Assembly: GCA_947623685.1 (NCBI GenBank)
Contig: CANQHF010000006.1
Span: forward strand, 1 to 55,026
Length of the DNA: 55,026 bases
Direction: 5' to 3'
From: an uncultured Bacilli bacterium
Lineage (GTDB): Bacteria > Bacillota_I > Bacilli_A > RF39 > UBA660
The position numbers and the translations under genes were made by a program. Positions 32,423 through 36,243 of this stretch are shown in pieces (position 1 is the first letter of the stretch; the number at the start of each line of letters is the position of its first letter). The notes under the pieces are model-generated. The model worked only from the letters and a program-made list of their open reading frames with translations, was not told the DNA's origin and did no database searches.

Positions 32423-33070
32423 TTATTCACCAAAACTTGATATAAAATCTTGTATTACTTTAATTATTTTTATAAAACTACTTTCATCATTTAAAATGTC
32501 TAGTTTTTTATCATTTATAACGATTCTAATTGCTGGAATATTACACAAAAGCGATGAAACAGTTATTATTTCATTTTCTTTTTCTTTATTTGGAACGTTA
32601 TTTTCATCTATTTTAACATTATAGCTTAATCCTATCTTTTTTATTTTGTCAATTAATACATCATTACCCCTTAAAGTTTGTCTATTATTTGTTACGATAT
32701 CAATATCCGTATCATCTTTAAAAGTACTAGAATGAATGTCAATTAATACTTTTATGTTATATGCGTTAATTAAGTTAATAACTGCGTTTTTATAATCATT
32801 TTCTAAATCAGTATTAGGGTCAGCGTGGGTAAATAACTCAAATATTGCATATGAGCTCGTTACGTTTGCTAAATATCTAACAACTGCACCAGTGTATTTT
32901 TCAGCATCCCTTACGTCATCACCACGAATTTGATTTACAGAATGAGGAGAAGATAATAAAACTGGAAGATTACCACTTAATACACGGTATTTTTCCTCCG
33001 TCCATACGTTGGTACCAAAATACTCATTATTAGCAAAATCAGATTCTAAAGCTAATATTAAGTCTTTCAT
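32423..33070 (-). CDS. N-formylglutamate amidohydrolase-like / Zn-dependent hydrolase fold protein
   Basis: LLSSPHS and LIDIHS motifs; RBS AGGAAGTG. Confidence 0.55.
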   Translation of the reverse strand: MKDLILALESDFANNEYFGTNVWTEEKYRVLSGNLPVLLSSPHSVNQIRGDDVRDAEKYTGAVVRYLANVTSSYAIFELFTHADPNTDLENDYKNAVINLINAYNIKVLIDIHSSTFKDDTDIDIVTNNRQTLRGNDVLIDKIKKIGLSYNVKIDENNVPNKEKENEIITVSSLLCNIPAIRIVINDKKLDILNDESSFIKIIKVIQDFISSFGE

Positions 33071-33096
33071 ATTATCACTTCCTCGTATAATATATT

Positions 33097-33385
33097 TTGT
33101 AAGTTATTTTAACTTACAATTTAATATTCTTTCTAGTTAGTTTTTTAACTAACAAATTTATTTATTGGCTAGGATACTCTAGTGTTAAAATATTATTGAA
33201 ATATTTTTGACTTAGACTTATTCATTCACATCCTGTAACCCTTTATGGTGTTTACTCAGAAAGACTGTTTCTCTTCTTATTAGTCATATTTCTTCTAACT
33301 CAGATGCTGTTTCTATTTTCTTATTAGTTCGCAGTATCCAAATCCCTAATAGAAAATATGTATTCTAATAACGAGGTTGTCGTAA
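33097..33385 (+). ncRNA. Predicted IS110 bridge RNA
   Basis: LTG TCACATCCT (33226-33234) vs target TCACTTCCT; RTG AAAG (33260-33263) = rc of CTTT; LDG CAGATG(CT) (33301-33308) vs donor CAGATGTCT; RDG ACGAG (33371-33375) = rc of donor CTCGT; each guide pair brackets an internal stem; RNA ends approximate. Confidence 0.8.
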
Positions 33386-33453
33386 GCTAGTAAGCTAGAG
33401 TTGTCGTTGCCAATTTTATTTCACAAAATTTAATTTGAAAGGTGGTGTTATTT

Positions 33454-34734
33454 ATGATTAATTCTTTGTTTATTGGTGTTGATGTTTCACTCCAATCTAA
33501 TCAAATTTGTGTTATGAATTTTGATCAACATAAGTTCTTTAATTTGAAATTTCCTAATACTCCGGATGGTTGTGAAGATGCAATTAATAGAATTAAAAAT
33601 ATTCATGATAAATTCTATTTTGATAAACTTGTGGTTGTTTGTGAAGCCACTGGCATGTATTCTTTTCATTTAGCTTGTTATTTTTCATCACATGAATATC
33701 TTAATAACTTCAATACTGAAGTTTATCAAATTAATGCTCATGACTTTGCTAAATATAAAGATTCATTTAACAATCTTGAAAAGACTGATCATTCTGATGC
33801 TTATATTCTTGCCGACTTTGCGAGAGTCGGTAGAACTAAACCTCTTCATCCTTTTCGTGGTTCTCAATACATTGCTCTTCAACGTTTAACCAGACAAAGA
33901 TATCATATTTCTAAAAATCTTGTTAAAGAAAAACTTTATGTTATGAATAACATTTATTTATCTTTTTCAGGATTGATTATTGCTGACAAGAAGAATAAAC
34001 CTTTTTCTAATATGTTCGGGGCTTCTTCTTGCGCTATTTTTGATAACTTTGACTCTCCAGATCAAATTGCTGAAACCTCTGTTGATGATTTGTTGGATTT
34101 AATTTCTAAAGTTGGGAAAAATCGAACTAAAAACCCAAATGAGAAGATTGTTTTACTTAAAAAAGCTATCAATTCTTCTTATCGATTAGATCAAACTGCC
34201 TATAACGGTATTAATATTGCTGTCGCTTCTTCTTTAAGTACTATTAGATTTTTAGAAAATGAACTTAAACAAGTTGATAAAGCTATTTTAGATACTGTTA
34301 GAGGGTTAAATTCTAATGCTTATAATTCTTTACTTTCTATTCGTGGTATTGGTAAAGTTTATGCTGCTGGTATTTTAGCTGAAATTGGTAATATTAATTA
34401 TTTTAAACATAATTCCAATTTGGCTAAATATGCAGGTCTTTACTGGAATAGAACTCAATCAGGTAAATTTGAAAAAGAAGATAAAAAGTTTTCTCAACAT
34501 GCAAACAAATATCTTCGTTATTACCTAATTGAAGCCACTGCTTCTTGTGTTAGAATGAATTTTCCTTTTATCAAGAATTTTTATGATTCTAAATTTAAGG
34601 AAGTTACTAAACATCAACATAAACGTGCACTCGTTTTATCTGCTCGTAAACTTGTTCGATTGATTTTTGGATTACTGCGAAAAAATCAATATTACAGTCC
34701 TATAAACTCGAATACTCAATCTTTAATAAACTGA
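33454..34734 (+). CDS. IS110 family DEDD transposase/recombinase
   Basis: RuvC-like DEDD (IGVDVS, CEATG, KTDHSDA) and Transposase_20 domain (GIG, AEIG, YAGL, QSG catalytic Ser); ATG 33454 behind GAAAGGTGG. Confidence 0.95.
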   Translation: MINSLFIGVDVSLQSNQICVMNFDQHKFFNLKFPNTPDGCEDAINRIKNIHDKFYFDKLVVVCEATGMYSFHLACYFSSHEYLNNFNTEVYQINAHDFAKYKDSFNNLEKTDHSDAYILADFARVGRTKPLHPFRGSQYIALQRLTRQRYHISKNLVKEKLYVMNNIYLSFSGLIIADKKNKPFSNMFGASSCAIFDNFDSPDQIAETSVDDLLDLISKVGKNRTKNPNEKIVLLKKAINSSYRLDQTAYNGINIAVASSLSTIRFLENELKQVDKAILDTVRGLNSNAYNSLLSIRGIGKVYAAGILAEIGNINYFKHNSNLAKYAGLYWNRTQSGKFEKEDKKFSQHANKYLRYYLIEATASCVRMNFPFIKNFYDSKFKEVTKHQHKRALVLSARKLVRLIFGLLRKNQYYSPINSNTQSLIN

Positions 34735-34878
34735 GTTCGTTGTTATAGCGAACTAATGTTTAGTTTCTAACTAAGCACTTTTTAGCATGCAATAATTTAT
34801 TTGATAAGGGAGAAATTATTTAAAAACTTCCATAACCTTTATCTTGACATATTACCAGATGTCTTTTATTCTAAAATA

Positions 34879-34907
34879 ATTATATATTATTTTAAAGCAA
34901 AACACAA
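34879..34907 (-). promoter_or_regulatory. Orphaned sigma-A promoter of gene 32423-33070, now pointing into the IS110 right end
   Basis: Minus strand TTGTGT(34902-34907)-17-TATAAT(34879-34884), downstream of the aspS terminator. Confidence 0.65.
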
Positions 34908-34914
34908 TAGAATA

Positions 34915-34943
34915 AAAAAGCATATTTTTTAAAATATGCTTTT
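34915..34943 (-). terminator. aspS terminator
   Basis: AAAAAGCATATTT-TTTA-AAATATGCTTTT. Confidence 0.7.
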
Positions 34944-36243
34944 AAGGAGTAATTCTATTTGGTCCCCTAAATATAAACATTGTTTCTTTAAGTGATGGAA
35001 GACCTAGTAATAACATGGTTAATCTATCTATTCCAAGACCAAATCCACCGTGTGGTGGGCAACCATATTTAAAAAAGTTTTTATAAAACTTAATGTCATC
35101 ACCTAAGTTTTTCTCTTTAGCTTGCTTTTCTAAAACATCATATCTATGTTCTCTTTGAGCTCCTGTTGTTAATTCAGTTCCCTTCCATATTAAATCATAA
35201 CCCTGTGGGATATCATCCTTTCTCATATGATAAAATGCCCTTTTTGTTTTATTAAAATCAGTTACAAATATAAATTCATGACCATACTTTTCCATTGCAA
35301 AACGACTAGTAAGCTTTTCGGTTTCAGCGTTCATATCACCAACGTCATGACTAGGTATTTCATAGCCGTATCTTTCATTTAACTCTTTATATAAATCTTG
35401 TAATTTAATTTTTGGGAAAGGTGTTTTTGGAACTACTACGTCTACACCATATAATTTTTTTATTAAATCCCCATATTTTTCTTTAACAGCAGTAAGTCCT
35501 GCAACTAAAAGTTCTTCTTCTAATTTCATAACGTCTTCATAAGAATTAATATTTGCAAACTCTACGTCAAAAGATGTAAATTCAGTTGCATGTCTATTAG
35601 TATTTGAATTTTCCGCACGAAACGCAGGCGCTACTTCAAATACTTTTTCATATCCCGCTGCAATTGCCATTTGCTTATAAAATTGTGGTGACTGTGCTAA
35701 ATATGCTTTATTATTAAAATAGTTTACTTCAAATACTTCACTACCTGATTCTGATGCGGTACCAATTAATTTTGGAGTATGAATTTCAACAAAATCATTA
35801 TCATATAAATACTTTCTCATTGCTCTTACAAATTCACTTTGGATCTTAAATATATAAAAATTAAAATCATTTCTTAAATCAATAAATCTATTATCCATTC
35901 TAGTATCGATTAAAGCAGCATCTTTATCGGTAATACTAATAGGTAATTCTGGTGCGGATAAACTAGTTACTTCAATTTTACTAGGAATTATTTCAATTCC
36001 ACCCATTTTAACTTTGTCATTTTCTTTTAATACACCAGTTACCTTAATCGTTGACTCATTAGTTAAATTATTAACTAATTCAATCATTTCCTTATTTTTT
36101 TCATAAGATTTTTCTATTGTTATTTGAACTCTATTTGCATCATTTCTAAGGACAATAAACTGTACCCATTGAAGGTTTCTTACTTTTTCTGCAAAACCAG
36201 ATATTGTTATTTCCTTATTAACGCATTTTTTAAAATCTATCAT
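34942..36243 (-). CDS. aspS: Aspartyl-tRNA synthetase, short archaeal-type (probably non-discriminating Asp/Asn)
   Basis: 433 aa with no GAD insertion; LAQSPQFYKQ, FRAENSNTNRH, GAQREH, YGCPPHGGFGLG. Confidence 0.9.
   Translation of the reverse strand: MIDFKKCVNKEITISGFAEKVRNLQWVQFIVLRNDANRVQITIEKSYEKNKEMIELVNNLTNESTIKVTGVLKENDKVKMGGIEIIPSKIEVTSLSAPELPISITDKDAALIDTRMDNRFIDLRNDFNFYIFKIQSEFVRAMRKYLYDNDFVEIHTPKLIGTASESGSEVFEVNYFNNKAYLAQSPQFYKQMAIAAGYEKVFEVAPAFRAENSNTNRHATEFTSFDVEFANINSYEDVMKLEEELLVAGLTAVKEKYGDLIKKLYGVDVVVPKTPFPKIKLQDLYKELNERYGYEIPSHDVGDMNAETEKLTSRFAMEKYGHEFIFVTDFNKTKRAFYHMRKDDIPQGYDLIWKGTELTTGAQREHRYDVLEKQAKEKNLGDDIKFYKNFFKYGCPPHGGFGLGIDRLTMLLLGLPSLKETMFIFRGPNRITP

Follow-up and report, generated by a model that had tools for sequence, protein, structure and literature searches.

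A predicted bridge RNA in the left non-coding end of an IS110-group insertion sequence from an uncultured Bacilli bacterium

We report on an insertion sequence of the IS110 group in a stretch of 55,026 nucleotides (nt) from an uncultured Bacilli bacterium (GTDB lineage Bacteria; Bacillota_I; Bacilli_A; RF39; UBA660; GenBank assembly GCA_947623685.1, contig CANQHF010000006.1, positions 1 to 55,026 of the forward strand), this whole stretch being referred to as the window. The element lies at 33084-34864 and encodes a recombinase (33454-34734) preceded by a long non-coding left end, in which a preliminary description of the sequence had read the four guides of a bridge RNA related to that of IS621. 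Our comparison with relatives makes it very likely that this non-coding interval belongs to an intact IS110-group insertion sequence as its left end and encodes a bridge RNA. All features of the element are located on the plus strand.

Results

An intact element with a conserved recombinase

The element comprises 1,781 bp including one copy of the CT core, its left non-coding end having 370 nt (33084-33453) and its right non-coding end 130 nt (34735-34864). The recombinase in between has 426 amino acids (aa), matching the size of about 426 aa given before, and consists of a RuvC-like DEDD domain and a Tnp domain. Pfam (PF01548, DEDD_Tnp_IS110, E 1.4e-22; PF02371, Transposase_20, E 3e-19) as well as NCBIfam (NF033542, 'IS110 family RNA-guided transposase', 208.6 bits compared to a cutoff of 140) place it in the IS110 family of RNA-guided transposases. 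Among solved structures, the IS621 transposase 8wt6 (chain 8wt6_A; full-length phmmer E 9.2e-09) comes nearest. In this alignment, for which the chain numbering is offset by two, D10, E64, D112, D115 and S336 stand opposite D11, E60, D102, D105 and S241 of IS621, given as its catalytic residues in PMC11208158, and all five are invariant across 19 aligned homologues (68-94% identity).

The boundaries of the element and its CT core were defined by close copies and by empty sites in congeners. A scan of species-representative genomes returned eight loci encoding proteins 91-94% aa identical and having unrelated flanks. All eight copies start with CGTATAAT immediately 3' of ...CCT and, two loci with a different right junction excepted, terminate in the shared ending ...CAGATGTCT (...TTGACATATTACCAGATGTCT); these shared ends at unrelated sites therefore delimit the element to 33084-34864, each junction carrying CT. 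The site is empty at each of 11 loci from congeneric species (11/11), the orthologue of the left-flank gene directly adjoining that of the right-flank gene, which shows the insertion to be recent at the species scale. With CT at both junctions, the same ends in all these copies and empty sites, the element inserts in the manner of the IS110 group, i.e. without terminal inverted repeats, without duplication beyond the core dinucleotide and in a site- and orientation-specific way, its orientation relative to the target gene being the same at 26 of 26 sites. The left target TCACTTC together with the target-derived core CT (TCACTTCCT; 33075-33083) is the reverse complement of a stretch containing the Shine-Dalgarno sequence AGGAAG of the gene at 32423-33070. 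The right target TTTATTC (34865-34871) is assigned from the sequence, the close copies and the empty sites, and the left donor CAGATGT followed by the donor core CT (34856-34864) from the sequence and the close copies.

Some further observations concern the right end and the recombinase gene (L numbers denote loci). In L032:3880-3982 (equal to L063) and L034:3880-4402 the right end is joined after ...CAGATG (window position 34861) to CCAAAGACG... instead of TCT and flank, and a contig from an RNA library (run X4) carries the same aberrant join. The aberrant flank of L034 is more GC-rich and has a match to group II intron D1-D4 on its minus strand (RF02001, 146 bits, L034:4063-4259). Since L033 has the left flank of L032 and yet a normal right end, the aberrant join may stem from a second copy, from aberrant recombination or from copies having been joined during assembly. 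A relative of 65% identity (L054:2480-3680) apparently has duplicated right-end fragments with repeated 'GATATGGCAG...AAATTAT' blocks and no clean terminus in the stretch read. Immediately 3' of the recombinase stop codon a 9-bp hairpin (34734-34754) resembles a terminator, its tail having five T in eight positions, the minimum of the scan. The same genome contains a second IS110-family transposase gene on another contig (G000:C4:63724-64872), 27% identical to the one described here, which has relatives at about 29% identity in the congeners G001, G017 and G032.

The target-side guides match the flanks of their own insertion sites

Guides were compared with insertion sites using relatives' DNA from 24 metagenome loci (40-92% identity) and a few loci from genomes of the same order, the order-level genome search giving a match at E <= 1e-60 in 7 of 401 genomes. 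The recombinase family is large (3,345 protein matches at E <= 0.001 among 8,000 scored candidates). A recognisable left end is present at 36 loci. Four of these were left out for having less than 14 nt of left flank (L035, L044, L060, L065) and six as duplicates sharing the last 12 nt of the flank (L033, L063 and L064 with L032; L061 with L058; L066 with L050; L054 with the window), resulting in 26 independent insertion sites. The wider flank of L054 is unlike that of the window despite the shared 12 nt, and its guide matches its own target at 9/9 positions. Pattern-based calls were wrong for the right target guide of L049 and L065 and for the left donor guide of L055 and L068; these were excluded from the count for the right target guide or read by eye.

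The first of two internal loops of the predicted RNA, the target-binding loop (TBL; 33208-33286), is closed by TGACT (33208-33212) and AGTCA (33282-33286). It harbors the left target guide (LTG) TCACATCCT (33226-33234), which agrees at 8/9 positions with the left target plus core, and the right target guide (RTG) CAGAAAG (33257-33263). Within the latter, AAAG (33260-33263) is the reverse complement of, and would pair with, the core CT plus TT, G33259 can form a wobble pair with the third T of the right target, and AC (33264-33265) follows. The LTG match, the inner stem of the loop and its TGACT/AGTCA closure were thus all correctly read in the preliminary description.

Among the eight close copies (about 92% identical) the LTG loop is hypervariable, nine of the ten columns 33224-33233 being different, and the three bases 5' of AAAG vary likewise, the remaining structured region being largely conserved. 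At the 26 sites, the LTG matches its cognate target with a mean of 7.12/9 compared to 5.98 for non-cognate targets, or 7.73 compared to 6.85 if G-U wobble is allowed, neither value being reached in 20,000 permutations (0/20,000 each); the match is perfect (9/9) at four sites, and L048 and L050 have guides agreeing with their own targets at 9/9 positions. The RTG likewise pairs with right-target positions 1-6 at a mean of 3.78 for cognate compared to 2.83 for permuted combinations (18 sites; 0/20,000). Contiguous RTG pairing over 7 or 8 positions is found in L051, L069, L050, L042 and L052, which argues for an RTG of about 7 nt in this family; AAAG followed by A had been recognised before, its assumed length of 4 nt having to be extended to about 7 nt (33257-33263). 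These comparisons support pairing of the first internal loop with the target, the LTG to the bottom strand of left target and core and the RTG to the top strand of core and right target.

The donor-side guides and the handshake dinucleotides

The second loop, the donor-binding loop (DBL; 33296-33379), is closed by a basal stem of TAAC (33296-33299) and GTTG (33376-33379). Its left donor guide (LDG) CAGATG (33301-33306) is identical to the donor at 34856-34861. In the right donor guide (RDG), ACGAG (33371-33375) is the reverse complement of CTCGT and is followed by G; read from the sequence, the guide extends discontiguously to AT(A)ACGAG (33368-33375), pairing with CT-CGTAT via one bulged base. 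The preliminary description had given ACGAG with the following G and the TAAC/GTTG closure, which are present, so that only the length of this guide needs to be amended.

In every locus, positions 1-6 of the LDG and the RDG (core and right donor, RD) pair with the donor. LDG and donor both read CGGATG in L043 and L053 and both CAGATG elsewhere, i.e. an A-to-G change is found on both sides. The RDGs of the relatives were read from alignment A2, as the RDG pattern matched none of them; they are nearly invariant, the base facing the donor T varying between A and G with pairing still being possible. L058, L061 and L062 (40-46% aa identity) have AAGACG as LDG and ACGAA as RDG; no convincing right end was located there, and these loci added nothing to the donor test.

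According to the handshake model of PMC11208158, a dinucleotide next to a guide is complementary to positions 6-7 of the non-cognate DNA. The putative TBL handshake guide AC (33264-33265) is complementary to donor positions 6-7 (GT, 34861-34862), and full complementarity is found in 21 of 23 loci with three states, i.e. GT/AC, TT/AA and GA/TC. The G of the putative DBL handshake guide GT (33376-33377) can pair with target position 7, all 26 independent sites having C there.

All four guides are therefore located where they had been described, in the order and polarity of IS621. Using 5,000 dinucleotide-preserving shuffles of the 370-nt left end, we obtained an LTG match of at least 8/9 in 265, an exact LDG 6-mer in 101 and an exact RDG 5-mer in 290 shuffles, and all four guides together, correctly ordered and spaced, in 0/5,000. 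The guide/site covariation to which the preliminary description had looked among homologues is present, namely for LTG and RTG with their own flanks and for the handshake and one LDG base with the donor.

The left end has a covarying fold with a long-range helix

A hand-built structure was scored on an alignment of 28 sequences. In total, 84.3% of the cells are paired, compared to 75.9% in column shuffles (0/500) and 37-58% if the partners are slid by 1-3 columns, and 27 of 49 pairs are changed on both sides. The best-supported helices are the 5' stem-loop H1, the DBL inner hairpin, the TBL inner stem and a long-range helix termed P0.

The two perfect 5' hairpins announced for 33097-33119 and 33136-33153 are both present. 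The former, H1, has 10 bp with 88% of the cells paired and 6/8 pairs changed on both sides, and the latter, H2, has 7 bp varying in sequence and length among relatives; in alignment A2 other hairpins replace it or it is missing (L043, L049, L051, L053). Hairpin H3 (33184-33211) folds in every clade despite sequence change, its column counts being noisy (68% paired). P0 is formed by ACTCTAG (33176-33182) and CTAGAGT (33395-33401) and encloses H3, TBL and DBL. It occurs in the covarying forms ACTCTAG/CTAGAGT, ACCCTTG/CAAGGGT and AGCTTAAT/ATTAGGCT, with 89% of the cells paired and 5/7 pairs changed on both sides. Since its 3' strand sets a minimal limit, the structured RNA would end at or beyond 33401, i.e. 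16 nt past 33385, and probably spans about 33098-33401 (about 304 nt); the earlier statement that the RNA is longer than that of IS621 holds and its extent of about 290 nt to 33385 probably does not.

Within the TBL, the closing helix is paired in 87% of the cells and has two compensatory pairs (AU/GC and CG/UA swaps). The inner hairpin (33235-33255), in which GTAACC(C) (33235-33241) pairs with GGTGTTTAC (33247-33255), shows 94-100% paired cells and the compensatory forms GTAGC/GTCTAC, GCAG/CTGC and TC/GA. The long inner hairpin of the DBL (33314-33358), formed by 33314-33327 and 33346-33358 and likewise described before, folds in all clades with 10/13 pairs changed on both sides. In the DBL basal stem three of four pairs never vary and the fourth departs by one unpaired cell, being neutral with respect to covariation. 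H3 shares bases with the TBL basal stem in its outermost 3 bp. Two conserved pairings compete for 33208-33211, one with 33184-33186 in the outer part of H3 and one with 33282-33286 in the closing stem of the TBL, and this may permit alternative conformations.

RNAalifold applied to the whole alignment of 430 columns found H1, P0 and a portion of H3 and, in addition, pairings of columns 197-201 with 341-345 and of columns 213-218 with 325-330, which we rejected because they would destroy both loops and have no changes on both sides. The minimum free energy fold calculated from the left end as a single sequence (z = -2.9) lacked the two-loop architecture.

A promoter is predicted across the circle junction

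Joining the right end (RE) to the left end (LE) through one CT brings the -35 box TTGACA (34844-34849) of the right end to a distance of 17 nt from the -10 box TATAAT (33086-33091) of the left end. This predicted sigma-70 promoter exists only across the RE-LE circle junction, and its 17-nt spacer is found in 23 of 23 loci with both ends, including clade B, in which the donor is 1 nt longer and the spacer is kept because 1 nt was lost upstream.

In four RNA-library runs, which belong to three studies, relatives of about 90-95% identity are covered by contigs that include left-end sequence, with spans corresponding to e.g. 33145-33500, 33242-33402 and 33080-33839. The circle-junction joint was not seen in these RNA-library contigs. 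A search of the left end for an outward promoter serving the displaced target gene gave 12 promoter-like sites compared to 11.2 expected, with no more than a 9/12 match on the minus strand (33135-33106), and thus lends such a promoter no support. In the integrated state, the right-end TTGACA, 17 nt and TATTCT of the flank form a 10/12 promoter-like site (34844-34872) reading into the right flank.

All independent insertions lie at the edge of a Shine-Dalgarno sequence

Read as its reverse complement, the left flank starts with AGG(A/G)(A/G/C/T) at each of the 26 sites and is followed by a start codon 11-14 nt further on; at 24 of these sites this codon opens an open reading frame (ORF) of at least 50 aa or one running to the contig end. 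All 26 independent insertions are thus located at the 5' edge of a Shine-Dalgarno sequence. In the window, the ATG of the minus-strand gene 32423-33070 is 13 nt away from the insertion point and both Shine-Dalgarno sequence and ATG are intact, the element being placed between the probable promoter region of this gene and its Shine-Dalgarno sequence. In the host's own genome (1.24 Mb, 27% GC), a start codon is comparably placed at 557 of 5,545 AGGRR and 310 of 1,385 AGGAG sites, and 72 of 871 sites within two mismatches of the predicted 11-nt target of this copy are Shine-Dalgarno-like. This means that 26/26 insertions are placed in a manner seen for 8-22% of comparable motifs of the host genome and, as judged from the 72/871 near-matches, that the guides are insufficient on their own to restrict insertion to such sites.

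The target gene encodes a protein of 215 aa without Pfam match. DNA resembling it occurs in 35 of 37 other genomes of the genus searched (70-79% nucleotide identity), and the element splits it from an AT-rich upstream region conserved in the empty sites.

Discussion

Sequence comparison establishes the boundaries of the element, the matching of guides and flanks, the covariation of guides and donor and of the stems, and the conservation of a promoter at the junction. By analogy to IS621 we infer that the left end gives rise to an RNA which the recombinase binds and on which recombination depends. This would be in line with a model according to which excision generates a circle bringing together the right-end TTGACA and the left-end TATAAT as a sigma-70 promoter (spacer of 17 nt), resulting in transcription from about 33098 and an RNA of about 300 nt. 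The RNA would be arranged as 5' stem-loop, variable hairpin, conserved hairpin, TBL and DBL, both loops lying inside the long-range helix, and would be bound by the DEDD/Ser recombinase. LDG (33301-33306) and RDG (33368-33375) would pair with the RE-LE junction, and the dinucleotides 3' of RTG and RDG would pair with the non-cognate DNA after top-strand exchange. The competition between H3 and the TBL stem together with P0, for which the description of IS621 has no counterpart, could constitute a conformational switch gating the target loop.

Several points weigh against a bridge RNA. Rfam searched over 32900-35000 with E up to 10 returned chance-level matches only. The LTG is imperfect in many copies, with no more than 6/9 Watson-Crick pairs at 8 of the 26 sites, and because the sequences underlying the permutation tests and covariation counts are related, these figures overstate independence. 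On the donor side, the LDG covariation comprises one variable position in two loci which may belong to one lineage, and RDG and DBL basal stem show next to no variation on which a covariation test could be based. Pairing of the LDG with the core was not seen: guide CUG or AUG stands without canonical pairs opposite the donor TCT, i.e. position 7 and core, so that of the LDG initially read as CAGATG(CT) the exact 6-nt donor match stands and the adjoining bases, CTG compared to TCT, are unmatched. In clade B the donor 6-mer is 2 nt away from the core compared to 1 nt elsewhere, the guide length being unchanged. The RNA-library contigs give neither strand nor ends nor level and possibly reflect DNA carry-over; they are at most compatible with expression.

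These points bear on two alternative explanations. The left end might be an ordinary 5' untranslated region and promoter without any guide RNA, the matches acting as subterminal recognition repeats at the DNA level or representing flank copied in after insertion. A correlation of LTG and flank alone gives no direction of causation, the donor-side guides hardly vary and the RNA-library contigs show no transcript, all of which this explanation would accommodate. It would leave aside five helices with compensatory changes, which indicate selection on an RNA fold, the polarity scheme of IS621 (the LTG in top-strand sense, the RTG as reverse complement and the handshake dinucleotide reading the other DNA) and the placement of the protein in an RNA-guided IS110 family by NCBIfam, and we regard it as highly improbable. 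Alternatively, the copy might be a stranded relic having the architecture of a bridge RNA and no longer transposing, the A/T mismatch at LTG position 5 then being decay after insertion. One full copy is assembled in its own genome, a further point against an active element, and the LTG matches at 8/9 while a perfect 11-nt match to the guides stands unoccupied on contig C2. Against decay stand the intact ORF with all catalytic residues, the intact ends and junction promoter and the site being empty in all 11 congener loci, i.e. a recent insertion; moreover, a single LTG mismatch is usual among natural copies. We consider a relic very unlikely. An intact IS110-group element encoding a bridge RNA hence remains our preferred interpretation, and a reading made from the letters alone was correct and independently confirmed by comparison with relatives.

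The confinement to Shine-Dalgarno sequences allows two explanations, of which survivorship has, in our estimate, about an even chance. Guides must end in C-CT, and in a gene-packed genome of 1.24 Mb only intergenic matches, mostly ribosome-binding sites, would survive. In favour of survivorship, the handshake G and the core leave no choice at target position 7 and at the core itself, and only 72/871 near-matches of the predicted 11-nt target are Shine-Dalgarno-like. Survivorship explains less well why guide positions 5-6 remain CT in most copies though free to vary and why the insertion point is identical, 11-14 nt from the start codon, at 26/26 sites. Moreover, translation initiation signals are named as the target of another IS110 member, IS900, in the title of Doran et al. 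1997 (cited in PMC8141618), giving Shine-Dalgarno targeting a precedent in the family; our full-text literature search returned no paper connecting IS110 or bridge RNAs with Shine-Dalgarno targets. The other, more doubtful explanation is that this lineage is a bridge element homing to ribosome-binding sites, which keeps the 3' half of its guide (CUCCU) as an anti-Shine-Dalgarno mimic and reprograms only the 5' half. Each copy would then be delivered to the 5' edge of the Shine-Dalgarno sequence of a chosen gene, between promoter and translation signals. If such a targeting preference is true, an RNA-guided element could uncouple or re-wire the expression of a single gene with coding and translation signals intact, and the strict placement at ribosome-binding sites could matter for the persistence of the element in small, gene-dense genomes.

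Compared to known systems, the element is closest in its organization to IS621 of E. coli, which has a 177-nt bridge RNA (PMC11208160, PMC11208158) with the TBL at nt 34-98 (LTG 50-58, RTG 77-80) and the DBL at nt 110-177 (LDG 123-130, RDG 157-165). Shared features are the DEDD RuvC-like domain and the Tnp domain with catalytic Ser, the CT core, the non-coding RNA in the left end with a promoter at the RE-LE junction, the succession of 5' stem-loop, TBL and DBL with the order LTG-RTG-LDG-RDG, a 9-nt LTG, handshake guides starting with G 3' of the RDG and with A 3' of the RTG, and a discontiguous RDG (A157-U158/C162-G165 with flipped bases in IS621). The donor, whose resemblance to that of IS621 had been pointed out in the preliminary description, is similar in having T at position 7 and RD xGTAT, and the distance from LTG to LDG is 75 nt here compared to 73 nt. 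In contrast, the protein has 426 aa compared to the 328-residue chain in the PDB and the RNA about 300 nt; the extra 5' hairpins H2 and H3 and the covarying long-range helix closing the two-loop region are found here. The DBL inner hairpin is longer, resulting in an LDG-to-RDG distance of 67 nt compared to 34 nt. The RTG has about 7 nt compared to 4, and the LDG 6-7 nt without evident core pairing compared to 8 nt. The genome has 27% GC, and the targets are ribosome-binding sites compared to repetitive extragenic palindromic (REP) elements for IS621. In the IS110 group in general, the left non-coding end is longer than the right one, and for IS621 the promoter forms across the RE-LE junction (PMC11208160).

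The ISCro4 transposase (PDB 9t56) matches in the Tnp domain (E 4e-08), only the C-terminal domain aligning significantly. IS900 of Mycobacterium avium subsp. paratuberculosis reportedly inserts between ribosome-binding site and start codon and is said to carry the hed ORF on the opposite strand. The element described here differs in being located upstream of an intact Shine-Dalgarno sequence and start codon, and the ORF list contains one minus-strand ORF of at least 60 aa within it, which has 60 aa (33487-33669). Elements of the IS1111 type with seekRNAs (ISEc11 etc.) also combine a DEDD transposase with a short RNA matching both target strands, and natural reprogramming among relatives is reported for them (PMC11187229). 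They differ in having the non-coding region downstream of the transposase gene and the target-matching regions in reverse order. An assignment to the IS1111 group, which has a long RNA-bearing right end and subterminal inverted repeats of 7-17 bp, is contradicted by the end lengths (right 130 nt compared to left 370 nt) with the guides being in the left end.

The element is thus a known kind of system, i.e. an IS110-group bridge-RNA element, for which comparable diversity has already been reported. Bridge RNAs were predicted in 85.7% of the ISfinder IS110s with longer RTGs being noted (PMC11208160), and in a 2026 preprint (10.64898/2026.10.21.760802) 86 covariance models, many of them deviating from the IS621 fold, were used to call the guides of 32,190 bridge RNAs. 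As IS110 bridge RNAs have been known since 2024 and tens of thousands have been mined in the meantime, no new category is added, and the designation as candidate new programmable recombinase holds only in the sense in which it does for any intact IS110, 32,190 bridge RNAs having been predicted already. What the element adds is an IS110 system from uncultured gut Bacilli that is compact and very rich in AT. Its many target loops reprogrammed in nature provide a series for the study of guide rules, i.e. a G-U-tolerant LTG of 9 nt, an RTG of about 7 nt, handshake covariation with three states and a donor guide without core pairing.

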